A stretch of DNA of 64,000 nt. Source: Yuukianura sp. NJ FZ-2021 (lineage: Eukaryota). The notes under the pieces were generated by a model. The model saw only the letters and a list, made by a program, of their open reading frames with translations, was not told the origin of the DNA and did not search any database. Made by a program: the position numbers and the translations under genes. The first letter of the stretch is position 1. Every line of letters starts with the position of its first letter. Shown in pieces: positions 761 to 30,608 of this stretch. The stretch covers positions 6,944,001 through 7,008,000 of the forward strand of contig CM102283.1 of assembly GCA_046563655.1 (NCBI GenBank), given 5' to 3'.

Positions 761-1032
761 GTGCATGTGTAAAGTGTTATGTCAACTGCGAAATAGTTTT
801 TTTGCTAAGCAGAAAACCAAGTCCCATGCCAATTGCCTTTCCAGTCTCACAAGCAGAGTTTTTGTTACACACACTTGCATTACAAATGACCTTTGAAATC
901 CATTTTGACTCGGAAGGAGGTGACCTAGTGTCACACATTAAACCCAAAACTTGTTCTTCTCGATGAGATGAACAACTTTTGTAGAGGTCATTTTCCCGGT
1001 TACCAGGGATAAAACTGGTTGACCTTGACCTT

Positions 1033-1397
1033 TGAAGCGGACAGGGACTGACGAGGGACGGATTCGGAACTCCGGAGGAAACCGAGTGCGTAGGAATAGG
1101 TAGAGTAGGAGGACTATGTTCTCGAGATAGGATACAGAAATATTCTCATTCACAATTTTCTGTAGCGGGAGTCTCTTCCCAACCTTCAACAAGTGAACAT
1201 CTCAATAAAAGTTATTCCATTAGTTCACTTTGTTGTTTCCGACCATTTTCATTTTCTAGTTGATGTTGGCACATTAGGAGAACCTACTATTGTTGACCTC
1301 AGGTCAAATCTTCTCTCCAGGAAGATTCGACCTGAACTGCAGATTTCCCTGTAGAGGAAATCACAGTTTTGGTCTCAGGGACTGCGGGGTTGTTGCA
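1033..1397 (+). repeat. 5' LTR
   Basis: TGAAGCGG...TGTTGCA, direct repeat of 6525-6889; AATAAA at 1204-1209. Confidence 0.97.
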
Positions 1398-1398
1398 G

Positions 1399-1415
1399 TG
1401 GCGGCCGAAGGGATC
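1399..1415 (+). other. Putative primer binding site
   Basis: TGG-starting GC-rich sequence 1 nt after the 5' LTR. The cognate tRNA was not identified. Confidence 0.6.
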
Positions 1416-1669
1416 ATTCCAGTGATGTCATGTTCTCAACTGAAATGAAAGGTCAAGAGGTCAAGTGAGACTTTCCTGTAGAGAAAGGCTCGATTGAAGA
1501 CAATTGAAGAAGAAGAAGAGATAAACCGATGAGAATTTCCCTGTAGAGGAAATTCTGACCTACCAGCTGATTGATTTTCCTGTAGAGAAAAGCAATCCAG
1601 CATTGGAATAAATCAACAACCTACCTGTATTTTCCTGTAGAGAAAAGACGGGTCAGGTCAAAGGTCAAA

Positions 1670-2065
1670 TAAAGGCACGGGTGCTGCCAAAAATTTTCCA
1701 AAAATCGTTTTCACGCACGGGTGCTGCCCGATTTTTTCAAAAATTCAAACACTTTGAAATTTTCCTGAAGAGAAAAGTTCAAAGCTGAGGGACACCAAAC
1801 CAAAGGACAGAGAGCAATTCGTCGCTTATTTTGAAAAATCCTGAAGAGATTTTTCGAAAATTGAACCGATTTTCCCGTAGAGAAAATCGTTCATTGTCCA
1901 TTTGATGCCAAATTAAAGGAAGGAAGAGATTCATATAACAACCCTGACATAAAATAAAGGCACGGGTGCTGCCAAAAATTCCAAAATCAAACATTACGCA
2001 CGGGTGCTGCCCAAAAATTTTCAAAAATTCGAAATCACGCACGGGTGCTGCCCGATTTTCCAAAA
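1670..2065 (+). repeat. Five copies of GCACGGGTGCTGCC in the retrotransposon leader, within a duplicated block
   Basis: Copies near 1675, 1715, 1960, 1998 and 2039, with similar flanks (AAATAAAGGCACGGGTGCTGCCAAAAATT occurs twice). Confidence 0.85.
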
Positions 2066-2272
2066 ATTACCAAATACTTTGATTTCCCTGAAGAGGAAAT
2101 CGAAAACCCAAGGAGAGGAACAAGTTGTAACTTGGAGTTGAAGCTCCTGAAGAGAGCATCGACACCAAGACCATCTTAAAACCAATTAAAACAAACAGAA
2201 TCCTAAAAATCGACTCAGTTAACTGGATTAATTGAAATTCCTGTAGAGAATTTCGTTGTCCAGCATTAACTA

Positions 2273-3913
2273 ATGAGCAGAAGGGAAGTGAGAGATTTAG
2301 AACGAAACTCTCGTGCATTCCTACAAGGATTTAACATGGACAGACAAAACATAAATCCAATTCCTGAAGAACCAATTGATGATGATGATTTTGAAGGTGA
2401 CATGCAAATTCAGAATCCAGTAGATGAAGACACAGACTATTCAACTGGAGGTTCAGATTCAAGTTCTGTAATTCAAAGAACTGTAGCAAACCAAGTTCCT
2501 ATCGTCTCATCTGCTGCTCCAACTATCACAACCCAAGCTCTAACAGCAACATCAGGCATGCGTACTACGGGTTCTGGTCCATCCAGTTCACGTACTGTAC
2601 CGAGTGGAGCAGATTTTGTGCAAATTCCAGAATCAAGTCAAATTAATCAACAAAATCTCGCAAAATGGATCAATGAAGGATTTGCTGCTGTGGTTTCACA
2701 AGTCATGAATCCTATTCAAGCGAGTCTAACGCGATTGGATAGACGCATGCACAGAATGGAAAGTGGCAATGCAAATCCTACTGGCAGTCAATTCTACCAA
2801 TCACAATTCAACCAGAGACAGCAAATTAATCAACCTCAACAAGATTTTCTAAATGCTCTACAAGGAATTCGGCTGACAACCGTCAGTTCCGCAATTCCAA
2901 TTCCGAAATTCAACCATAAGAAAACAACAGCTTCAGACTTCTTGAAGGATGTAGAAAGATACTACAGAGCTCAACAATACAAAGAAAATGACTACTTGTA
3001 TTTGGTCAAAAACATTCTACCAAATGACGCACAAGAATGGTGGGACCATGTACGCCACAGAATTGATGACTGGGATGAATTCAAACAAGAGTTTATGGAA
3101 AAATACGACGGAGCCACCAACATCATGGAACGAATGAGGCTTTTGCAAACAAGACTTCAGCGTATCCATGAGCCGACAGAGTCTTTCATTTTCGAAATGA
3201 TGAAGATGTCAAAGGTCGTTTATCCAAATGAGCCCACAGAAATGGCAGTCGAAAGAACGCGAAATGCCCTATTTCCACAGTTGCGACTGGGTTTAGGTGC
3301 TCAAGACATTAAAACACCGGAAGCTTTAGTTAAAGCTTGTCACGTGGTTCATCGGAGCCTTGAGGCTAACGCCAGAGTTTACAAAGAGAAAATTCGCCTA
3401 CCGCCATTAAATAAACATGAATTGGAAGAATCTAAGAAAAACCATGGTCCCAAACAGAAATCTGAAGAAAACTCGACCGAGGAGTCAGAAACTGAATCCT
3501 ATCGCGGGTCAAAGTCTTTTCATGAACAACAGGGATTCAATGAAACATACAATTCAAACTCTAACCATACATTCCGCGGCGGAAGAGGAAATTTCCCTGA
3601 TAGAGGAAATTTCACTTATCGTGATGGAAGATGGAACGGAACCCCAAGAGATCACAAACCAGATGACAAACCTCAAGAAGCTAAGCCAAGTCAAAATCCA
3701 TCTGACAAAAACAAACTGGCCACCGTCCAGTGCATGAAATGCAAAGGATTTGGTCATCTTACAAAAATTTGTCCGAATAAAACAGGATTAGCACTTCCCA
3801 CTCATGATGAGGAATGGGAGACTGAGTACGAAGAGGAGTACTACGAAGAACAACTTGATGACGACAACACCAATCAAAATCCAGATTTAAACTCTCAAGG
3901 GAGACACCAATAA
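2273..3913 (+). CDS. gag: Retrotransposon Gag (546 aa) with capsid-like region and CCHC zinc knuckle
   Basis: Intact ORF. Capsid-like segment 'AQEWWDH...DWDEFKQEFMEKY'. Knuckle CMKCKGFGHLTKIC. Confidence 0.93.
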   Translation: MSRREVRDLERNSRAFLQGFNMDRQNINPIPEEPIDDDDFEGDMQIQNPVDEDTDYSTGGSDSSSVIQRTVANQVPIVSSAAPTITTQALTATSGMRTTGSGPSSSRTVPSGADFVQIPESSQINQQNLAKWINEGFAAVVSQVMNPIQASLTRLDRRMHRMESGNANPTGSQFYQSQFNQRQQINQPQQDFLNALQGIRLTTVSSAIPIPKFNHKKTTASDFLKDVERYYRAQQYKENDYLYLVKNILPNDAQEWWDHVRHRIDDWDEFKQEFMEKYDGATNIMERMRLLQTRLQRIHEPTESFIFEMMKMSKVVYPNEPTEMAVERTRNALFPQLRLGLGAQDIKTPEALVKACHVVHRSLEANARVYKEKIRLPPLNKHELEESKKNHGPKQKSEENSTEESETESYRGSKSFHEQQGFNETYNSNSNHTFRGGRGNFPDRGNFTYRDGRWNGTPRDHKPDDKPQEAKPSQNPSDKNKLATVQCMKCKGFGHLTKICPNKTGLALPTHDEEWETEYEEEYYEEQLDDDNTNQNPDLNSQGRHQ

Positions 3914-3961
3914 CCACCTCGATGTGTGTTCTCCCGATACTCAACAAAATCTCAAGAGGTG
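3886..3961 (+). promoter_or_regulatory. -1 programmed ribosomal frameshift signal (slippery T TTA AAC plus predicted H-type pseudoknot)
   Basis: Heptamer 3886-3892 is in X XXY YYZ register with gag. The -1 frame is open into pol. After a 6-nt spacer, GGGAGACAC pairs with GTG-T-TCTCCC (to 3935), and loop CACCTC (3915-3920) is complementary to GAGGTG (3956-3961). Confidence 0.8.
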
Positions 3962-5501
3962 TACCTACAATTCAAGTTAATCCAAATCAATTCAAATTCT
4001 CTGCATTCTTGGACTCAGTGTCTAAGTTTTGCGTGATGACAGAACAATTGACAAAATACATCAAATCAAGAATTAAACTTCAATTCAAAATTCAAACTAT
4101 TCTCAAATGTGACGCATCCGACAACGGCTTGGGCACTGCGCAAGTTCAAGCTATAGATGGAAAGGATCGGCCAATCTTATTCATCTCCAAAATCCTGAAG
4201 AAAACGGAACGGAGTGCACACATTTTCATTCTCTCACGAGCTCCAGTTGACAGTCATGACACTGAAGAAACGGACTATCCAGAAGAGATCGTCTGTACCT
4301 TTGTGTGTCTCTGTTACGAGACACCGACTTGGAACCAAATCAAAACTAACCAACAAAATGAAATTCAAACTTCACGTCTCAAGAAATTGTTTCGTGATGA
4401 CCCTTCAAATTCCAAGTGTACACACTTCTTAATAGAAGTTGGAACAGTGAAGCGTCAAGTCGAGATTCCGCTCAAGAGAATCAAAAAGTACTCTCTCGCA
4501 GATACTACCGAGGTTCACTCAAAAGTAGCTGAAACTCAAATTCAAAAAATGGAAATTCCGGGTTTCCAAAAATGTACATCCAGTGCGGAGGAACCTAAAC
4601 AAGTTCAGTCGGCAGGGATCGTACCAGAGTCAAACCAAACCAATATCTCAAAACAGAAGCGCGCTTTGCAAAAAATCAAGATTCCAGTTATCCTAACGTC
4701 ACTCCAAAATGAAATTCAGAAGATTTTTCATAATGCACCGGAGTCAGGTCATCTTGGAGCCAAGAAGACAAAGGAGGAAATCAAACATCGATGTTTCTGG
4801 AACAGAATGAATAAGGACACTGCTGACTACGTCAAGTCATGCAAAAATTGTCAAACGACAAAGCCAGACAATACCCTACCATCTGGGTTACTGCAACCAA
4901 CAAAATTTACATCAGCCCTTTTGAACTTAGGCAACGATTTGCCACTTCCGTTTGACAGAAATTTGGAAGCTAAAGGAAACACCAATTTTGATGAAGAAAG
5001 CGCGAAATTGACAGATTTACGCGAGAAACTTCAAGAATTAATCAAATGGATACGCGAGAACATGGAGGATGAACAGGAACAAAATAAGAAAATGTACGAC
5101 AGTTCTCATCGAGATGTTACATACGACATTGGTGATTTAGCCTTAATTCGAAATGACCCAATTCCCAAGAAGGACGATGAGATGATGCAAAAATTTTCAA
5201 AACGATGGCTAGGCCTTTTCAAAACTACATCAAAAACCGCAGACGCAAGCTACGAGTAGCAGATCCAGTCACAAACAAGAAATTCGGGAGACGTCACGTT
5301 GTGGAGCTAAAACCATTTTTTGTTCGAGAAGAAACTGTGTCAGAAATCAAGAACAATGACATTCGGAAAAGTCAACCAATTACCAGGAAGTTACGCGAGA
5401 AGAAACCAACCAGTGACATTCCGACAAGTACAGCAGTTACCAGCGAATTACGCGAAAGAAAACAAGTAAATTATAGGTCATTGGCAGGCCTACGTCATTA
5501 G
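3886..5501 (+). pseudogene. pol: Internally deleted Pol: degenerate protease, RNase H ends, integrase Zn finger and C-terminal module; no RT and no DDE core; 1-nt frameshift near 5255
   Basis: FLDSV (protease-like) runs straight into CDASDNGLG...PILFISKILKKTER (RNase H N-terminus), then LSRAP. HHCC motif H..GHLG...C..C, then LLQP joined directly to SALLNLGNDLPLPFD. The tail VADP...HVVELKPF continues in another frame (to 5501). Confidence 0.85.
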
Positions 5502-5948
5502 TTAAGTCAAAATAATAATTAATTATTAGTTAGAAAGATTTTCAAATTATTATAATATAAATCACAATGTTGATAGATTTATAATTTTCCTTCATTATTT
5601 AATTGTACTGAAATAGTATAAGTCCAGTACCTTTAGTACATTTAGTCGTTAAATTTAATGTTTCGTAAAGTAGAATCGTACGTTGACGTTAAGCAGTTTC
5701 CGCTAAGTCAGAGTATTAGTCACAACCTCACTTTCGAGCGCTAACTCACACTCATTTATCTAACTATCTCACATGCTTTCCAGATTCAGCACAGTACAGT
5801 CTAAAGATTTACTCTAATTTCCCTGTAGAGGAAATTGGAAGTCAAAAGCTAAAAATCTCCAGTAGAGAGAATTTCTACTTCTAAAAACGTGTTACTGATT
5901 TTCCTGAAGAGAAAATCGGTGTTGACTTCTCCGTAGAAGAAGTGGACA

Positions 5949-6353
5949 ATGTCAAACAAACGTGAACTGAAGAAGAAATCAAAATTATTGCCGACTTCTG
6001 ACGAAAGTGTCAAGAACACTCAATTTACTGACAAACCAATGGAAGTGACAAGCAGTCGAAACGTAACTTTACTTCAAAACAAATTGGCACAACGATATGC
6101 TGAGGAAGACATTGCTGACATAACTGATGAGTTGCAGATCAACATCTAACAACATCAGAGACAAGTTTTGACAGTTCCTACAACAATTCAACAATCTAAC
6201 TTCAAAGATTTACTCATTTGTTTCTCAAATGGACACAACAGGCAAGAATGCCCGAAAGTCAACCAACAACCGGACGCAAAAGGAATATTTTGGAAAGAAA
6301 ACAATACCGGAACCTCTATTTTGAACAATGTCCAGTCCACAGAATTCATTTGA
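5949..6353 (+). pseudogene. Possible extra 3' ORF of the retrotransposon, with one in-frame stop and a degenerate zinc knuckle
   Basis: ORFs 5949-6149 and 6168-6353 are in the same frame, separated only by TAA at 6147-6149. LICFSNGHNRQECP resembles a CCHC knuckle lacking its first Cys. Confidence 0.4.
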
Positions 6354-6524
6354 CTCAAAGAACTAACATGAAAAAACGGGAGAAACTTAAGACAAAACGT
6401 GGGAATTCTGGACGTGTCGAGTGGAAACGAGACGATAAGAAGACGAAGATTTTATCCGCTGGTCGAGGTCGGAGGACCGTGCATGGAGATGGCGCTGATG
6501 GAGGCGCGTTTCGCGGGCGCAATA

Positions 6525-6889
6525 TGAAGCGGACAGGGACTGACGAGGGACGGATTCGGAACTCCGGAGGAAACCGAGTGCGTAGGAATAGGTAGAGTAG
6601 GAGGACTATGTTCTCGAGATAGGATACAGAAATATTCTCATTCACAATTTTCTGTAGCGGGAGTCTCTTCCCAACCTTCAACAAGTGAACATCTCAATAA
6701 AAGTTATTCCATTAGTTCACTTTGTTGTTTCCGACCATTTTCATTTTCTAGTTGATGTTGGCACATTAGGAGAACCTACTATTGTTGACCTCAGGTCAAA
6801 TCTTCTCTCCAGGAAGATTCGACCTGAACTGCAGATTTCCCTGTAGAGGAAATCACAGTTTTGGTCTCAGGGACTGCGGGGTTGTTGCA
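6525..6889 (+). repeat. 3' LTR
   Basis: Direct repeat of 1033-1397, followed by TSD CCTT. Confidence 0.97.
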
Positions 6890-7910
6890 CCTTTGACCCG
6901 GAAGGAGTTGACACCCGGGGGTCATATTCAATAGTGACCAAGCCCGGGTCATGACATGGTCACCGGTGAAAACCGGAATGAAATCGGACCAGTAGTTTCT
7001 GAGATAATTAATCTGGACAGACAGACGGACAGACAGACAGACAAACCACTTTTATCACAATAGCTTCGCTATTATAATAAGTGGTTCACTTGGAGAAAGG
7101 TGATAATTAGTCATCATCAAATGTGTTAATTACATTTACATAAAAATAATGCGTCCAACTAGACGAATTTAACATCGGAAAAGCAAATATGCAATAAGAT
7201 TAATTCGGTGTTCAGGTTGCCTTGACCTTTAACCTGTGAGACAAATGGGTAGGGAAGCGTCACTTTGGAGTGAGCTGTGGACTGCATGCTTCCGTCCTCT
7301 AGTGAGTTCTGAGGTAGGAGAAGGTGAGTGAAACTTACCTTCTCCTACCACAAAAACACAGCCGACAATCAATTTAAATGCTAATTTAAAACTCAATTAA
7401 CGTTCACTACCTAAATTAAACCTACTTTACAATTATCTGAATTAAATAAACGACTCTAACTTACCTTGATATCACCCCTAAATTAAAACTGCCAAGTTCT
7501 TAAAAAGTGTTTTATGTCTGCGGTCGACTATGTATTTTGTCAGAAATAGGAGAGCATCAGCCACTTTTTCACACATGAAGATCTTACAAGCCAAAGTGAA
7601 ACGCGGGGAACCTCTGGTGGACTACAACTACAACCGATCTTTACAGGTAACGTGGTTTGATTTTTGTTCGAAATATTTGTGAAATGGTGATCCCACCATA
7701 CTCACTTGAACTGCAATTCGAAATTCAATTTCATCGTTCACCTTTGTTTGAAATTTAAGCCTATTATCTTATCTTTAGTATAAAAATATTTGAGTACGGC
7801 TAGCAATCTGTAATGAGTAAGCAGCCGGAAGGACATGGGTAGATGAACACTGTATCATGGTTTTACATTTGCTGGTTGCTCAACTTGCAGGCTGAGACTT
7901 AATAGTAAAC

Positions 7911-12937: not shown

Positions 12938-14711
12938 ATGCAAAACAATATTGTTGAGTACTTCCCGGGAAATGATGGTCACAGATGTGGTTACTGCAAA
13001 TCAACTGATACAAATTTTTCTCATGGTAAATCAGTTTACAACGTTAAGAATAATAATTATTGTTATGCAATTATTGCATAATGGCTGGAACTTAACTGGA
13101 GTGTTTTTTTTTCCACAGGCATATGGGCGCACAGTATAACCCCGAAGGAATACGAAAGTTTGCTGAATAGAGGCTGGCGACGATCCGGAAAGTACTTGTA
13201 CAAGCCCACGAACGATCGAATTTGCTGTCCCTGCTACACAATTAACTGTCATGCTGTTGATTTTCACATTTCTAAATCACAAAAGAAAATTCTGAAGAAG
13301 TTTAACGACTATTTGCTGACTGGGAATCTTAAGGTCCGGACGCATACCTCTGGTAAAATTATTTTCAATTACTTTTTCGTATTAAGGTAAACTGCTGACA
13401 GTTTTTTTTTACACGAACCGGAAGTAAACAACAGTCTAGATGAAAATATGAAGGAAGTGATCGATGTTAAATCTGGAATCGCCGATACTAAGGATTTGGA
13501 TCTCCTAATCCCGGAAAAATCGAAACCTAATGATGACAATGGAAGTCCTCATTTGTCATCGAGGATGGACTCGCCCAAACGTCCCAGGAACGAACTACCA
13601 GAACCTTGCAATACATTGGCCTTTGCCTCCTGTCAAACTTCTCAAGATGGTGGTACTAGAGAAAAGGGCAAGAAGAAGAAATTTCTTCGAATTCAGCGCA
13701 AACTGCAAAAGTTAGCATCCCAAGGACTGAATCCAGATGATGAGATGGCCAAACTGAAGAAGTCTGCTGCTCCAGTTACTAAAACGATCGATGATTTTAT
13801 TGACATCGAGGCACCAACAGCGAAGTATCGATTCGAAATTCGAAAAGTAAAAGTTGGAACTCCAGAATTCACTGCCACGTTTAAATTGGAGCACTCGTTG
13901 TACCAAAAGTATCAAATGACGATTCACAACGACGAAGAAAGTGAATGTACCACTAAACAGTTCCGTAGATTTCTATGTGACAACCCGTTCATTGTAAGTT
14001 AAAAAGCCGACTTTTAGTTACTCCGCTTTTAGTGTTTTCAACTTATCTTAATTGACTTAACATTATCGAATCGCAGGACAATGCCGGAGATGACTCAGGA
14101 TGCTATCATCACCAGTATTACGTCGGTAATCAGTTAATTGCTGTTGGTGTCGTTGATGTTCTACCAACCTGTCTCTCGTCGGTTTACTTCTTCTACGACC
14201 CTGCTTTTTCTGATCTTACTTTGGGTACATTTGGAGCTCTTCGGGAAATCAGTTTCGTTCGTCAACGCGTCAAGACTCATCCGAATTTTCGGTTTTACTA
14301 CATGGGATTCTACATTCACTCATGTACGAAAATGCGGTACAAAGGAAACTACTCGCCATCGTACCTCCTTTGTCCAGAAACTTATCAATGGAAGTTATTA
14401 GACGATAATTTGAGAAAGCAGTTGGACCATACCAAGTACATCGCATTTGTTCGAACCGATTCTTTTCAACACAAGGAAGAGAACATCAATAAGGTAAACA
14501 GCGTTAAACTTTTTCAAATTGGAAACTTTTTTTTTGACTTAGGAAAATTTAAATCATCCAGGTCTCAATTCTCTACCGAAGAAGTATAATGCCTTATGCA
14601 ATCTACGAACTTCAACGTTCCAGAGACGACACCAGTGAAATCCAAGAGTACTGCAACCTCGTTGGGAGTGAAATTGCGCAAACTCTGTGTCTTTACCGGT
14701 CGCTCAACTAA
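12938..14711 (+). CDS. ATE1: Arginyl-tRNA--protein transferase 1 (5 coding exons)
   Basis: Exons about 12938-13025, 13119-13352, about 13425 or 13440-13993, 14077-14493, 14562-14711. Motifs IVEYF..RCGYCK, GWRRSGKYLYKP, CCPCYTI, YQKYQMTIH, FRRFLC, LIAVGVVDVLP, YYMGFYIHSC.KMRYKG. Confidence 0.95.
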
Positions 14712-15331: not shown

Positions 15332-18300
15332 ATGGCCAAAGATCCATTGTGTCCACTAGGATTCCATCCGCAGGTTCGATGGCCTACACGCTGCAAACGA
15401 TGCTTTCGGTAAGCCATACTTCAAAATTTTCAAACATTTTTCCAAATCTATCAAAATTTTGTAAAATTTTCTAATTACACAGGGAGTATAAGGAGCACTC
15501 ATCTAAAAAAGACGAACCGACAGAACGTGTTTCGTTTTTGAAAAAAGAGCAAAGCGGTGACATGAGTGACGAAGGTAGCGAATCTTCCGGATCTAGCAAA
15601 AGAGATTACAGTTCGCCTTATTCCTCCATTTCTCCTGCTGCACTAAACAGGTAAATTAACTTAAGTTTTAATTAATTAACAAATTTTTAATACCAAATAA
15701 ACAAGATTTTAAACAAACTTTTATAAATTGGCAGACTCACAAAACTCCGGACGGACGATCCATCAAAGAAATTAGGTTTCGCGGGAGTTGACACTCGGTT
15801 GACACCGCCAGACTTTGGCTCCGCCCTCCGCCGCAACACGACTGACTTATCTGAATTCCTTGAAACGTCTGGAACGTCTGACGTTGTAGCACACCATCTC
15901 AGTCCAACAGATTCATCAGTTACTATTCGACTGCGGAAATCCAATAGTTTCACTGACGACAGTCTCAATAGCAGCAGCGATTTGAAGAGAACTGAAAGTC
16001 CACCAAGACGTGCCGTCACTCCTACACCAATTCCTACTTTTAAATTGACTTCAGAAGATGCGCAGTCGTCTTCACCTTCAGCTTCTCCGAAATCACGGCT
16101 GAAGGAACGCAATGGAGAACGGAAAGCTTCTAGTGACGGATCACGAGAAAATTTAACTGAAGAAGAACTGGTTGCAGCAGCAACTTTGCCTAGGAAAAAA
16201 ACCAAAAGAAAACGATTGTTGATCAAGGGAGTGCAGGAAGTTGTTCCAGATAATTCTTTTGATGGAGGCGACAGTGCGGATGGCGACGGGTCAATGGACA
16301 ACTCCTCTGCTGATGTCGCTTTTATTATTCAGGTAAGCGGGAACAACCTAAAATGGACCACCTTTGAAATAAAATCAATAACTTTATTTTTTCAAAATTT
16401 TGATTTTTTTTTAATCTAGGTGAAAAGTACTAGAAAGCCTAAGCTGAATGATGATGACGAGACTATGAGCATGACAACGGCTACAGATACGACTGACACT
16501 ACGCTGATTGATGTCAACGAGTCGCAAAATGCTAGTGGTTTGTGCTTGTGGGAATTTGAAGAACTGAAGAAAGAAATGGAGAGGCTGAAGGAGAAATGTG
16601 ATAAACTGGAAAAGGAGAAAGCAGATATTCTGTCTAGGAGAGTTGCTAGTTTGGAAGCACCAAAATCACAAGTAAGTATTGTGATGTTCATTATTTATTA
16701 TGTTATTAATAACAATTTTTATTAAATTTTGATACTTTTTCTTATTTTAGTCTGCAGAGTACTTGAAACTACAACAAAAAGTGAATCAATTGACCACCGC
16801 CAATGAAGATCTGAAAGAGGAGCAGAAGCATTTGGAAGTCCGAAATCGGGAACTTGAAAAAGAGTTGTCAGCAAGACCTACCGGAGATTTTTTCCAAGTA
16901 ATCAACTCGTTTTGTTAAAAATTTTGTTTTTGGAAAATTGGTAGTTTTGACCGAATTGGTTTTGATTGATTTCAGAGATGCATTTCCGAACTGCGTTCAA
17001 AACTGGCAAATGCGGAAGCGGATATAGAGAAACTCCATGAAGAGAAACGTGAAACGGAGCAACAGATGAACGAGATGCAAGACGAATTTGAAGAATTACA
17101 AGACAGTTTTCAGGGAGACAAATCCGAAGAATACTCAGCTCTGAAGAAAGAACTCGACGACTCTAACAAGAGTTGCAGAGTTCTTCAATTCAAATTACGA
17201 AAATCCGAGAAGAGAATCGACACTCTGGAGGCAGAGAAGAAGGAACTGGAAACTACAATTGAAAAAACTAAAAATGCTTCTAAGATTATCCAATTAGAAG
17301 AAGAACTGAGCAAGTCCAAGGCTGAAAATGAGAAACTCCAGAAAGAAATCTTCAAGTACAAGAAGAACGATCCACAATTGTCGCCGCGTCTTGGTGGTGC
17401 AGCAGTGAAGAAGAAGAGTCCAGTACTAACTAAAGCTCCCTCTGGAGAATTCGTGGATCCACCAATCAGCAGTGACATGGATCCTCAACAACTTCTTCGT
17501 GACCTCCAGTCAACAGTTGAACGCGAATCGGATTTGCGGGAACAACTAAAGTTTGCTGAGGAGGAAGTAACAAGTCTGCGTCAGAAAGTAATTGAAGTGC
17601 TTAAGTTATAACTAATTAACTAAGCCAGAATGTCATTTATATTTAAATTTGGATTTTTTTTTTAGATGAGTCGAATTGAAGATGAGAATGAATCACTTCT
17701 GATTCAAATCAAGAAAATTTCGACTCCAGGAAAAGCTGGCGTGGAATCTCTTGCTGGAAAAGGAAACTTGAAGCAAGTAAAAGGCGCCGTCTCTTCCGAC
17801 AATTCTGCAGAACTGAAGCTACAACTGGAGCTAAATGAACAAGAGTCTAAGATTTTGAGAAGAAAAGTCGAAGATTTGGAAAAAGCGAATGCTCAACTAT
17901 CCAAAGATTTGCAAATCACTCAAGACAGCTTGGAAACATGTCTGAAAGATGTTACACAATCTGTAACAAAATCCAAAGTCAGGAAAACTTTGAAACATAA
18001 CATTTTTTGCCGAACTTTTCAATTTGCCTTTGGAACTTCTTTTTTCAATTGCAGAACGTCGAAGAAGTCTCGATTCTGCGCAGAAAAATAATCGAAAAGG
18101 AGAGAGAGGTGGAGCGACTGGAAGCGGAATTGCAAACTATGAAAACAAAATCCAAGACAAGCAGACCCAAGTCATTTTATATGTTAAAAATTCATGTTAG
18201 AAAACCATATTCAACTTTATGTGTTTCATGATTTTAGGATTTTGGAACTAGAAGAATCGAAAGCTGAAGTACGGAAACTCACTGAAGAAAATACCAAACT

Positions 18301-21300
18301 GAAACAGGAAGCTTTGAATCAAACGACATCACTACAATCTGAACTGAGTAAAACAAAAACTGAACTTGAGAGTCGTGAAAGCAGAGTTGCGCAATTAAAC
18401 GAATCAAATAAGACGTTGTTGGCCCATGTCGAGAAATTCAAGCGTGACATTGGAACTATGAAATCCCATTACGAAGCTATCCAAGATGACTTCGTTTTGA
18501 AAAATGCGAACCTCATAGCAGAAAAGGAGAGACTCCTGTCGTAAGTTTTTGTAAAAATTTAAAAACCAATTCAAAATTTTCAAACCCCAATGACACTTCT
18601 TTGATTTTTTGAAGGTCATTGAGTAATGTTCGGAAAGACACGGATACGCTTGAGAACGAATTGAAAACTCTCCGAGAAACATTCAACAACCGACAGGACA
18701 ATTGGATCAAGGAGAAACTTTCACTTCAAGTACCGTCCACATTTCAGCAAACAAAACACATTTTTTTTAAAATTACGTTTTCTAAATTTTTGCTAATTTT
18801 TTGACAGGATCGCTTGACAGAGTTGCAATCAAAAAGTGGAAACCACATTCCAGGAGGAGGGGAGAATCCGCAGCTCAAGAAGCTCGTCAGGGACCAAACG
18901 GTGGAGCTGGAAACCAAGCGTCGAGAAGTTGAAGGCTACAAAGATCAAGTCGTGTTTATGCAGAGAGAGGTAAAGAATAACAAAATTTCTTCAAAATTTC
19001 AGGATTTTGAAATTCAAAATTTTCATTTTCAGAATGACGAGCTAAGAAAACAACTGGAGGACTTTGAAAAACTTTCCCAAGTACAAATTCGTAGTATTTC
19101 CAATGAGCCCAGTGTCAAATCTGACAAGGAGATTAAAGCTGTCAGAGAAAGGTGAGCAAATGAAGAACAAACATAATAAAATAAGTTAATTTAATTATTA
19201 TGTTAATTAATTAATTTACGACAGACTCCAATCTGAAGACAAATTACACAAGAATGAAATTGCTCAAATGAAGATGCGGCATGACCAAGAGCTGGCAGCT
19301 AAATCCGAAGAAATTTCGTCAATCCAGAATCAACTGAGTCGTGCCAAGAGAGAGCGAGACACTTTTAGACAAATGGTGGACTCTGCTCAACGCGCAATCG
19401 CTGAACTAAAGTCACAGGATAGCTATCACCGTAAGGAATCTATTAGTGGTTTGGAAGAAGCTGCTGAAGGAGCTCGAGCCGCAGTAAATGCATTGCAAGA
19501 TCGCGTCCAATCGCTAGAAGATGAACTGTCGGAGTCCAGAAGAGAAACTGCAAGATGCAAAACAGAACTTGCTACAGAAAATTCAACATGGGAGATGAAA
19601 CTAGGTCAAATGCAGCAAAAAATTAACGAGGTAAAATTCAAAAACGTCGAAAAATTCAAAATCTCGAGAATAAATTGCTGAAAAAAAACAAAAACTAAAC
19701 TGGTTGGTTTCCAAATATTTCCAGTTGGAAGAGGATCGTCTTCTGGGCAGTGGACGCTCACGCGCAGTGGGGCAAAAGACAAGACTGGAATTGGCGTGGC
19801 AAAAAGAACGTGAAGAACAGCAACGCCGCTTGAAAGAAGCAACAACACTTGCCCGTGACCTGAAAACAACACTACAAGAAGTTAGAATTCAAAAATAGTT
19901 TTAACTTTAGTATAATCTTTGACCTTACACTGACATTTGTTGACCTTTGACCTTACACTTTCAATTTCCAGATTGAACGTGAACGTGACCGAGAGAAAAT
20001 CGAAAGTCGACGTCGTCTAGAGCAATTAAAATCAGCTCTTGACGAAGAACAGGAAGAGCTGCGTCGGAAAGTCAGCGAATCACATTCAGATTTGCTCGAA
20101 CTGCGTGACGCTCATGCAAAACTTCGAACAGCCAATGAAAAACTTCGGCGGGATCGTGAAAAATTGGAAAAAGAGCGCGAAACCCAGTTGAAAAAAGAGT
20201 TGGAACAACGGCGGCTGGCACACGACCGTGAAAAAATGCTGGAAGACCTGATGAAGCGTCTTGGCACTACAGCTAGCCGTGAAAATATTCACTTACTGCT
20301 TAAAGAAGTTGCTCCAGAAGGATCTGGCCAACTGATGCGCGACGCACGTAGAGGTGCGTTTCGTCGCGTAGCTTCGGCTGACGGATCTGACTCAAGTTCC
20401 TCCAAACCAGACTCGTCCATATCCATTTCCAGCACGGCTTATGGAAAAGAGCACTACGGCGTGGCTGGAGGTGTTGGACGAACTGCGATGAAATATGCTG
20501 GCGGAGCTTCTTCGACGTTGACCTTGCCGAGAGGTCAACGTTCTACTGACGACACTGAAAACTCCAACAAATTAAACGTACCGCAAGGAAGTCTCTATCG
20601 CAAGAGCGTTTCGCTTGAACAAACGGTTTCGATGCCTGACGAACAGGTATTTCGTTTGAACAATTTTTCGAAAAAGCGAAATTTTTTGAAAAATTTGAAA
20701 AGCTGTAATTGAATTGAAATGAACAGAGAATTTGGAAAGGCGAATCCGAAACTGGGAGTGGTTCCAGTCTCAAATCGTTGACCTCGATGGATTCCAGAGG
20801 ATCTAGCGTTGACAGGTTAGCAGTCAATATACGCTCAGTTTAAAAGCTTTGTTTTCAAAATTTGATTTTTTTTAGATTTTCAACAATTTCTAGCAAAAGC
20901 GAGAAACCAAAAAGCAAAAGTCTTGTGAGCAAGATGAAGAAGTTGGTTAAGTCCAAAAGTATCGAAGAATCTCAAACAGCACAAGCCGTAGTGAGGATGG
21001 GCGTCCAAGTGAGAACCCTTACCTCAAAAACTAAAATTTCAAACAATTTTTAAAAATAAATAGTGAAATTGTGAAAATTAAAATGCTTTTGAACGATTGC
21101 AGGCAGCAGGAGTCGGTGCAAGTGAACCTACACCAGTGACGGCAAGTACTAAAACCGATTCAGCTTCTTCCCTGACCTCGGAACCTGAAAAAGACACAGG
21201 AAAAGTCAAATTGAAGGACAAAGTCAAGGGCATGTTCAGACGGAGTTCAAGGTCACCGAGGTAAGATTTGAAAACATAATACTACATAGTTACTGACCTT

Positions 21301-24026: not shown

Positions 24027-25851
24027 GGGGATGCTGGAAGAAGAAGGAAGATGAAGAGATGATTATGATGAGATCAAATTATGGACCCACTCCAAGTTTC
24101 TTCTAACTTCGGAATCATGATGAGGTTTTAGGCTGCCTTAATTGGAACTTACCAACACTTCTGTAATTGGAACTTCACAAAACTTCCCGCCCCCTCCGAA
24201 AAAAAAACTGTCCAGGAAGAGCCTCCAAGGGCGTATTACCAAAACAACTCCACTTCAACTTAAGTCTACCAACTGATCCAGTTTGTCCAGGCACCCTCCA
24301 GCATCTAAACTCAAATTCAAAGCTCAATTTTTGCATTAAGCATCACCGTTTTTGGCACAAATTGGACAAAAAAGCTTCCAGCCAATTCAAAACTTTTACC
24401 TAAACTTGAATCTCTGCCAAAAGCATTTCCGTGGCGTAGCTTTTGGCGTACCATTCATTTCTAAAATTGCATTCAAAATAAAACTGCTGAAAAGCGTCTA
24501 AGAATGAATCTATCAACAATTTTTTGCCAATTTCAACTAAAAATGACACTGATGTTTTCGTGTAATGTTCTCTTTGAAAGCATTTTTTCATAAAATTTTC
24601 ATCATGTTAGGATAATTTTGGAACTTTAAGTACTATTTTTTCAAAATGGTTGAAAATTAAAATCAAAATGATTTACTTTTCTAAAGCGTTTCATCTAAAA
24701 GCTGATTTTTTTCTACACGCCGCTCCCGAAGCTAAATTTCGAACATGAGTAGTAAAATAGAATACTAAATCGGGAATGGCAGACGGTTTCAAATTACAAA
24801 ATTTTTGAATAAGCGCTTTTTGAAAAACTAAAATTTGAATTACAATACAATGGTCCAAAATGTCAGAATAGAATTTTTGAAAACCTCTCATTCAAAATCT
24901 GGCATTGACTGAAAATTTTAAAAACGTGTAGCTAAAAATGTTACAGCAGACTGCTACTAGCAGTCATTCTGATTTTTTTTTGTGGTTGAACTTTTTCAAA
25001 AAATATTTTTTTGAAATGACTTGTTTCAAGTACCCCGGTGACTTAAGGCCCCCTTGACTCTCCTTTGGGGAGAAGGTGGTAATGAAGGGCTGATTGGGAA
25101 GAGGTGTGAATGAGTCTATTAGGCCCCTAAAAATCCCGTTTTCCATTTGACAGTCACTGGAGGGAGAGGGCTGGGTTCGGCTTGGTCCACCAAGCTCCGC
25201 CCCTCGGCCAAACTCCCTCCGCCCCCTCCGGCCGAACTCAGTCGTCAGTCGTAAGTCGTTTGGACTTGAAGTTAACATAGGTTCCACGAACACATTCAGC
25301 TAGGCACCAATTCCCCAAGTCAACTTATTCTCCACTCCTTCGGTCGATCTTGGGTTGGACGGACGTTTAGTGTTGATCCTTAAGCTTACAGATCAACTAC
25401 TCAAAATTCTCATTAACTAAAGTGACGGACTCATTAACACTCACCTGACGCTCCAAAGTAACATAGTCAACTTGTCTCTGGCGAAGGCTTGGCCCAACCC
25501 CCTCTTCTTCAGCCGGTTATTCTTCTTACATAAGTTTAATTAACAAAAAGCGTAATTGAATTCTGGACAAAACAGTTTGAGCTGTCAAACTTGTTGGCTT
25601 GTCGGCAGTGACTGACAGTGGATGTGTTTTGTGAAAAGTTTTTTTTGAGAAAACGACTTGTGAATTTGAATTCTCGCGGCATGTCAATTGTTAAGTGGAT
25701 GGTCGTTAAAATCAGACAGTCATCTCATCAGTGATGGTTCGACCATGACTTCTGTTCAGCAGGGCGAAGATTGAAAGTGAAGTTTTGAACAAGCTGAATT
25801 CAAAATTCAAATTTTTGAAAATTTCAAATTTGTTTGAAATTTTAAAAAGTT

Positions 25852-30608
<4,757 letters not shown>

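Follow-up and report, generated by a model that had tools for sequence, protein, structure and literature searches.

A repeated RNA hairpin in the untranslated regions of a gag-only retrotransposon looks like a docking site, perhaps for the element's own capsid protein

We analyzed a 64,000-nucleotide stretch of the Yuukianura sp. NJ FZ-2021 genome (assembly GCA_046563655.1, contig CM102283.1, forward-strand positions 6,944,001 to 7,008,000; hereafter the window, with all coordinates counted from its first letter) and found in it a single long terminal repeat (LTR) retrotransposon of the Ty3/gypsy type, at 1033-6889, that carries 15 distinct hairpins sharing one seven-nucleotide loop motif. 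One of these hairpins lies in the LTR, ten lie in the leader ahead of the gag gene and four lie in the 3' untranslated region (UTR); a duplicate in the 3' LTR (loop at 6841, a copy of the loop at 1349) makes 16. The loop is fixed and the stems covary, a combination that, judged from the sequence, is not explained by plain duplication. The array has the look of a previously undescribed RNA docking site, repeated through the untranslated regions of the element and perhaps serving its own capsid protein.

Hairpins were scored by one rule, namely a loop matching C[TCA]G[TA]AGA flanked by at least four contiguous pairs, with G-U pairs allowed. The 15 hairpins, and two further copies of the motif that depart from this rule, are as follows.

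1342-1362, + strand: hairpin 1, in the LTR; loop CTGTAGA at 1349-1355, 7-bp stem
1466-1492, + strand: hairpin 2; loop CTGTAGA at 1476-1482, 5-bp upper stem, A-G mismatch, lower stem
1532-1556, + strand: hairpin 3; loop CTGTAGA at 1541-1547, 9 bp
1569-1597, + strand: hairpin 4; loop CTGTAGA at 1580-1586, 5 bp, A-G mismatch, 5 bp
1623-1653, + strand: hairpin 5; loop CTGTAGA at 1635-1641, 5 bp, A-G mismatch, 6 bp
1752-1784, + strand: hairpin 6; loop CTGAAGA at 1765-1771, 5 bp, A-G mismatch, 7 bp
1829-1859, + strand: hairpin 7; loop CTGAAGA at 1841-1847, 12 bp including one U-G
1867-1889, + strand: hairpin 8; loop CCGTAGA at 1875-1881, 8 bp
2078-2104, + strand: hairpin 9; loop CTGAAGA at 2088-2094, 10 bp
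2137-2163, + strand: hairpin 10; loop CTGAAGA at 2147-2153, 4 bp (GCTC/GAGC), A-A mismatch, 5 bp
2233-2255, + strand: hairpin 11; loop CTGTAGA at 2241-2247, 8 bp, 18 nt upstream of the gag ATG
5813-5839, + strand: hairpin 12; loop CTGTAGA at 5823-5829, 10 bp
5852-5874, + strand: hairpin 13; loop CAGTAGA at 5860-5866, the weakest member
5893-5921, + strand: hairpin 14; loop CTGAAGA at 5904-5910, 11 bp including two U-G
5920-5948, + strand: hairpin 15; loop CCGTAGA at 5931-5937, closed by a T-A pair where the other 14 have C-G
3583-3618, + strand: variant inside gag; eight-nucleotide loop CTGATAGA between GGAAATTTCC palindromes, overlapping RGNF-repeat codons
1300-1334, - strand (6792-6826 in the 3' LTR): reverse-oriented copy in the LTR; loop CTGGAGA, 14 contiguous pairs including one G-U

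An initial annotation of this DNA had listed 15 loop starts, all of which proved to be hairpins, and the stems it quoted (AGAATTTCC/GGAAATTCT, GAAAAATC/GATTTTTC, GCTC/GAGC and ACTTCT/AGAAGT) are correct. It had also pointed out the reverse LTR copy, the gag variant and an A-G mismatch just beneath the 5-bp upper stem of four copies. Each of these was found again here, the mismatch in the hairpins with loops at 1476, 1580, 1635 and 1765.

The array is confined to the element. On the + strand of the element (window 1032-6888) there are 24 loop strings, of which 16 have a stem, and on its - strand there are no loop strings and no hairpins, whereas the other 58 kb of the window hold 26 strings and 1 hairpin on the + strand and 17 strings and 1 hairpin on the - strand. 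The rule scan found loop strings in the coding regions, 3 in gag and 4 in the pol remnant, none of them with a stem. Among 1000 dinucleotide shuffles of the element the mean was 0.061 hairpins and the maximum 2. As control DNA we scanned 240 unrelated loci (1.94 Mb), 239 of them chosen because the 9-nt loop core occurs in them three times in succession; no strand had more than 3 hairpins, and 428 of 480 strands had none. That three-in-a-row pattern matched at least 120 prokaryote and at least 119 viral stretches, with no hairpin clusters in them; our guess is that these stretches are coding sequence or tandem repeats. A stricter two-hairpin pattern had no match in viral contigs.

We built a covariance model from the 15 hairpins and ran it unfiltered over the whole window. 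It returned 18 matches at E<0.01, all of them within the element and including three kinds outside the training set. The reverse LTR copy (30.4 bits, E 1.6e-5) and the gag variant (24.8 bits, E 6e-4) both matched, although neither had been used in training. The best match outside the element reached 17.2 bits (E 0.09), and a weak match lies in the pol remnant at 4266-4300 (E 0.033). Hairpin 15, although in the training set, matched only partially (17 bits, E 0.11); it and hairpin 13, with loops at 5931 and 5860, are the two weakest members of the array. Rfam gave no match at E up to 1 for either strand of 900-7000, and a literature search on hairpin arrays or heptaloops in LTR retrotransposons returned nothing relevant, subscription journals being mostly outside that search and absence from the literature thus unproven. 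The array is not catalogued in Rfam; protein-read hairpin arrays and packaging signals, as kinds, are already known.

The loop consensus is C-N-G-W-A-G-A, with positions 1, 3, 5, 6 and 7 invariant in the 15 aligned hairpins. Position 2 is T in 12, C in two and A in one, position 4 is T in nine and A in six, and a C-G pair closes the loop in 14 of the 15. At position 1768, the fourth loop base of hairpin 6, most or all of the covering contig depth in all four public sequencing runs that we consulted has T instead of A; in other copies of the element the loop of hairpin 6 is therefore CTGTAGA, and loop position 4 flips between A and T. The stems, of 7-13 bp, differ in sequence, and compensating changes preserve their pairing. 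Over 12 stem pairs in 15 hairpins, 82.8% of cells are paired compared with 60.2% in shuffles (0 of 500 reach the observed value) and 36-57% after sliding of the 3' side 1-3 columns out of register. Changes on both sides of a pair occur at 11 of the 12 pair positions, in 47 cells against 17.0 in shuffles. Because the inner four pairs had served to pick the hairpins, we repeated the count on the eight outer pairs alone, of which 74.2% are paired compared with 51.0% in shuffles (again 0 of 500) and 34-52% after sliding. These counts bear out the earlier claim of conserved structure as opposed to simple duplication. The lower stems of the four hairpins with the A-G mismatch are mutually unrelated yet complementary: GAG/CTC, GATTG/CAATC, CCTGT/ACGGG and CTTTGAA/TTCAAAG.

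Folding predictions recover most of the array. When the leader was folded alone, all ten of its hairpins, with their 7-nt loops open, were present in the minimum-energy structure (z = -3.35, 20 shuffles), and a piece of the 3' UTR formed three of its four (z = -2.29). In long folds all four inner pairs had a probability of at least 0.7 in 12 of the 15 hairpins. Hairpin 1 was not formed in the long fold of 1230-2330, and hairpin 13 is doubtful, with an inner-pair probability of 0.32-0.36 and a competing stem preferred in the folds. The energies of the individual hairpins range from -5 to -13 kcal/mol.

The leader also looks like part of a messenger. It has 5 ATG triplets between 1398 and 2272 where 15.6 are expected (P about 0.001), and from 1532 to 2272 just 1 where 12.4 are expected, a count as low as this being reached in 0 of 5000 shuffles; by comparison, 11 were counted on the antisense strand of the leader and 14 in the 3' UTR. 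Upstream open reading frames (ORFs) in the leader are all of 3-12 codons. This depletion makes the leader look like a scanned 5' UTR and gives independent support for a working sense transcript. By the energy threshold that applies to scanning ribosomes, hairpins of -5 to -13 kcal/mol can probably be passed.

The carrier is an element of an animal genome with the following parts.

1033-1397, + strand: 5' LTR, 365 bp with TG...CA ends; 1033-1332 recurs at 6525-6824 at 100% (repeat D1)
1399-1415, + strand: primer-binding-site-like stretch, beginning TGG, one base past the 5' LTR
2273-3913, + strand: gag ORF, intact, 546 aa, with one CCHC zinc knuckle (CX2CX4HX4C) and RG-rich repeats
3862-5259, + strand: pol remnant, an open frame at -1 relative to gag
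6525-6889, + strand: 3' LTR, with second copies of hairpin 1, at 6834-6854, and of the reverse hairpin, at 6792-6826 on the - strand

The two LTRs are identical over their full 365 bp (1033-1397 and 6525-6889), which suggests a recent insertion, and a 4-bp target duplication, CCTT, borders the element on both sides (1029-1032 and 6890-6893). Given an AATAAA at 1204-1209, the final ~170 bp of the 5' LTR are probably U5. The primer-binding-site-like stretch was matched to no tRNA, and the 64-kb window contains no tRNA gene. Compared with Pfam, the gag product scores 24.9 bits with Arc_capsid_dom and 22.1 bits with Retrotrans_gag, both under the curated cut-offs; a protein search returned three homologues, of which the top one (P0001, 54% identity) carries PF03732. 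In the 445-aa pol remnant an RNase H fragment (aa 54-101) and an integrase zinc-binding domain (aa 260-315) are recognized and nothing else: the domain search found no protease, reverse transcriptase or integrase core, and the full pol order is not present. With pol gutted and gag intact, this copy is a deleted, non-autonomous derivative, in keeping with the initial annotation, which had called it Pol-defective with hairpins flanking its ORFs. From four public runs (two studies) that consist of contigs and not of RNA, 311-954 contigs per run align to the element at likenesses from 99+ to under 90, which makes it a member of a multi-copy family; variants were read at 40 of the 945 variant places.

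Several further features of the element were recorded. The frame of the pol remnant is uninterrupted for 465 codons despite the lost protease, reverse transcriptase and integrase core, and one contig variant adds 217 letters between 4225 and 4230, so that other copies differ within this remnant. In the 52-nt overlap of gag and pol, at 3886-3892 and in the right phase, is a canonical -1 frameshift heptamer, T TTA AAC. A 115-codon ATG ORF runs from the 3' UTR into the 3' LTR (6248-6595); the protein it would encode is very rich in Arg and Lys and matches nothing in Pfam, and it may be a chance frame or an accessory RNA-binding protein. The reverse LTR hairpin directly adjoins forward hairpin 1. 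The leader contains a second repeat, the 14-mer GCACGGGTGCTGCC, present five times on the + strand (1675-1688, 1715-1728, 1960-1973, 1998-2011 and 2039-2052) and nowhere else in the window. Its copies are invariant and interleaved with the hairpins, within larger A/T-rich blocks (1667-1790 and the similar 1952-2105) with a hairpin at the end of each.

The element is inserted in a far commoner repeat, seen at 900-1032 and 6890-7000, to which the direct repeats 904-924 and 6892-6912 (D16) belong. The summed contig depth of this surrounding repeat is 7,300-81,000 in runs X1, X3 and X4 and about 690-2,000 in X2; most of the element is covered at depths between the hundreds and about 2,800 in X1, X3 and X4 and of 20-170 in X2. 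Contigs without the element join 1027 directly to 6889.

We propose that on the sense transcript each hairpin would offer a landing place for one and the same protein, which would recognize the loop with its unvarying C1, G3, A5, G6 and A7, and that this reader would most likely be the element's own Gag, by way of its zinc knuckle and RG-rich tail. Numerous weak sites of this kind would sum to selective encapsidation of the element's RNA. For a Gag-only element without protease, reverse transcriptase and integrase core, such a signal would open the way to being copied with enzymes that an autonomous relative supplies. The array is probably traversed by scanning ribosomes, and Gag binding there could switch the RNA from translation to packaging. 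Taken as a whole, a multivalent, Gag-read packaging array in a non-autonomous element is an explanation that we put forward tentatively, at rather less than even confidence.

Gag is ranked first among candidate readers because ten of the 15 hairpins lie between the primer binding site and gag, because a zinc-knuckle Gag is encoded next to them and because the loop exposes two invariant G residues; an element that lacks pol also depends wholly on being packaged with a helper's enzymes. Retroviral psi signals are stem-loops with exposed, G-containing loops that are bound by a zinc-knuckle nucleocapsid protein, and the array resembles them in these three respects. The placement typical of psi holds for the ten hairpins at 1466-2255 and leaves one in the LTR and four in the 3' UTR. 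Unlike psi, which comprises a few dissimilar stem-loops, the array repeats a single motif, extends into the 3' UTR and has no sequence or Rfam similarity to psi.

A second comparison is with viruses whose packaging signal is repeated. In the available excerpt of one paper, the alphavirus packaging signal in nsP1 consists of repeated stem-loops with GGG motifs (PMC6283419), and excerpts of three others describe dispersed packaging-signal stem-loops in MS2, parechovirus and hepatitis B virus (HBV) (PMC7612645, PMC6281560, PMC5431903), with a loop motif such as RGAG in HBV (PMC7612645, PMC6281560). As far as these excerpts go, the viral signals share with the array many short stem-loops with variable stems and a common loop motif, each of them weak and all thought to be jointly specific. 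The last loop bases of the array plus the closing G read AGAG, a formal fit to RGAG that may be chance. The viral signals differ in being mostly degenerate and spread through coding sequence, whereas the 15 copies here are confined to untranslated regions with a loop invariant at five of seven positions; in the coding parts the covariance model gives just the gag variant with its 8-nt loop and the weak match at 4266-4300. The viral signals also belong to viruses, and the array to a cellular LTR retrotransposon.

A number of observations weigh against this proposal. All of the covariation is among paralogous hairpins of one element copy. Since the stems are AU-rich and TTTYC/GRAAA is common to nine of the 15, pairing is partly inherited and not compensated, and the five invariant copies of GCACGGGTGCTGCC indicate that the leader multiplies motifs without evident stem covariation too. 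Retroviral packaging signals are not classically located in the 3' UTR, where four of the hairpins are. The only related locus from a metagenome scan with the gag-homologue alignment (L001, gag 32% identical) ends inside pol and has a 56-nt leader with no hairpin, and so neither supports nor refutes packaging; the same alignment found no relative in viral contigs.

The strand, too, is not proven. U-G wobbles had been taken to imply a sense RNA, and wobbles are indeed present on that strand, in 11 cells over the 12 pairs of the 15 hairpins, but their excess over the 6 A-C cells is weak (one-sided binomial P = 0.17). Restricted to the first 10 pairs the counts are 9 and 1, six of the cells being at one stem position and possibly sharing descent. 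The antisense strand folds equally stably, with a mean of -9.75 kcal/mol compared with -9.2 kcal/mol for sense. The reverse LTR copy is more stable on the - strand (-19.6 kcal/mol) than on the + strand (-17.3 kcal/mol), which has an A-C mismatch where the - strand has G-U; this copy could reflect antisense LTR transcription or a role in minus-strand DNA. The 15-to-1 bias in orientation could be a legacy of direct duplication.

The occurrence of the hairpins in the 5' leader and the 3' UTR alike fits a general messenger-RNA tag better than a leader-only packaging signal, and the reader could then be a host RNA-binding protein and not Gag, serving nuclear export of the intronless transcript, its stability, its localization or control of its translation. 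We regard this as somewhat unlikely. It agrees with an ATG-poor leader that works as a scanned 5' UTR and with the modest hairpin energies, which would let scanning pass, and multi-copy retroelement export elements exist, such as the constitutive transport element of simian retrovirus. The loop, however, fits no RNA-binding-protein motif that we could name, nothing in Rfam matches it at E up to 1, and the motif is missing from the 58 kb of host DNA around the element, several genes included; for any host protein that reads it, targets in the host are uncommon here.

Protein-read hairpins with a fixed loop and a free stem in untranslated regions include the iron-responsive element (IRE), with a 6-nt loop CAGUGN and a C bulge 5 bp below, and a similar design is seen in lambda boxB, with a 5-nt loop closed directly by a Watson-Crick pair. 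Four of the 15 hairpins share with the IRE a 5-bp upper stem over an unpaired position, and the last five loop bases in the array, in the form GAAGA, equal one boxB pentaloop. Neither system fits a 7-nt loop, the unpaired position in the array is an A-G mismatch present in four of 15, and there is no Rfam match. Comparison with known motifs (IRE, boxB, Smaug element, Pumilio element, histone stem-loop and microRNA seed site) yielded none that fits all 15 loops.

The size of the loop invites a different comparison. Anticodon loops have the form Y-U-NNN-R-A (pyrimidine-32, U33, purine-37, A38), and the 7-nt C-U-NNN-G-A loop of the array resembles them, CUGAAGA being like a GAA (Phe) loop and CUGUAGA like a GUA (Tyr) loop. 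On this account the hairpins would mimic tRNA anticodon arms and attract or sequester a tRNA-binding factor, be it a synthetase, an enzyme that modifies anticodon loops or the machinery of the primer tRNA. All 15 loops have seven nucleotides, with C at position 1 in 15, U at position 2 in 12 and G-A at positions 6-7 in 15, and ~1.6% of all 7-mers fit the general form. In four of the 15 hairpins the loop stands on exactly 5 bp with a purine-purine mismatch beneath, like the 26-44 position under the anticodon stem of tRNA. The poliovirus internal ribosome entry site (IRES) element bound by glycyl-tRNA synthetase reportedly mimics an anticodon stem-loop, and the HIV-1 tRNA-like element is another viral tRNA mimic. 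The excerpt available of PMC3384309 describes binding of glycyl-tRNA synthetase to the poliovirus IRES. In that of PMC2817452, the tRNA of structure 1evv has ACUGAAGAU as its anticodon hairpin, with CUGAAGA as the loop; in that of a preprint, the tRNA pseudouridine synthase PUS7 has the consensus UGUAG (bioRxiv 10.1101/2022.10.25.513650).

Against such mimicry, the two loop positions that vary, 2 and 4, are those of the universally conserved U33 and of the middle anticodon base: position 2 is C or A in three hairpins, and position 4 is G in the reverse copy. Eleven of the 15 hairpins have 4, 6 or 7-12 contiguous pairs in place of five, and the array has longer stems and fifteen copies, compared with one in tRNA and its viral mimics. 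A literature search for CUGUAGA with tRNATyr gave no match, and the primer-binding-site-like stretch is tied to no tRNA. Among the papers listed for CUGUAGA on its own, most dealt with microRNAs or oligonucleotides. ARAGORN, run on 60 prokaryote loci, found one bacterial tRNA-Tyr, bacterial loops not being a relevant comparison. We consider anticodon-arm mimicry improbable, and its specific form, in which fifteen Phe- or Tyr-type decoys would take hold of a host tRNA-binding factor and turn it to packaging, priming or protecting the RNA, decidedly improbable.

The covarying arms also bear on whether the array acts as RNA at all. A 9-bp core, CCTGWAGAG, is nearly invariant, and a reverse copy stands beside a forward one in the LTR, as is allowed for orientation-free sites, so that the copies might be double-stranded DNA sites for a transcription factor or insulator protein. 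Arrays of this kind are known in LTR-element leaders, and that of Drosophila gypsy for Su(Hw) has, like the present one, a dozen or so copies of a short motif in the leader of a Ty3/gypsy-type element. A duplex DNA site needs conserved arms and has no need of complementary ones, whereas here the arms change in sequence yet pair; the four copies in the 3' UTR are also a long way from the promoter, and 15 of 16 have one orientation. A DNA-level function is in our view quite improbable.

The shared TTTYC/GRAAA in nine stems, the multiplication of a stemless motif in the same leader and the youth of a family with identical LTRs would all suit an array with no function, in which a palindromic unit was multiplied by duplication in a fast-evolving leader and has not yet decayed. 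This we consider highly improbable, as the arms have changed on both sides at 11 of 12 pair positions while the loop stayed fixed, the outer pairs of the four hairpins with the A-G mismatch are unrelated in sequence and still complementary, and the flanks beyond the stems are not alike. Very improbable as well are kissing contacts, loop to loop or loop to reverse hairpin (sense loop UCUCCAG), that would dimerize or compact the genomic RNA: CUGUAG is self-complementary given two central G-U pairs and the sense loop of the reverse hairpin complements forward loops at 6 of 7 positions, but the CUGAAGA loops (six of 15 by our count) lose self-complementarity, every forward-reverse pairing has a central mismatch, and the sense strand of the element has no exact loop complement (0 loop strings on the - strand).

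Elsewhere in the window, a tandem array of GACAGGTGACACCCGGCAAG-like units lies upstream of the element at about 500-770, preceded by C- and G-rich runs at 390-490. A host gene fragment in the region 14056-14589 encodes the C-terminal domain of arginyl-tRNA-protein transferase at 14059-14586 (PF04377, Atlas score 0.94), and there are long coiled-coil ORFs at 16970-20712 and a His/Pro/Ala-rich ORF at 25846-26724. The window is eukaryotic, apparently animal.

To our knowledge, how LTR retrotransposons choose RNA for packaging is poorly known, and how non-autonomous elements are copied by helper enzymes is known even less. Fifteen near-identical loops on free stems offer a handle on both questions, insofar as loop and stems can be mutated separately and a candidate reader, the 546-aa Gag with its one knuckle, is encoded next to the array. 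Should Gag prove to be the reader of the loop, the model of many weak packaging signals, drawn from RNA viruses, would come to cover a cellular retroelement whose capsid is of the Arc/Ty3 kind. Were the reader a host factor, the motif would represent a new messenger-RNA tag in an animal genome, and if the hairpins are anticodon-arm decoys, a gag-only parasite would be hitch-hiking through tRNA mimicry to an extent that has been described for no retroelement.

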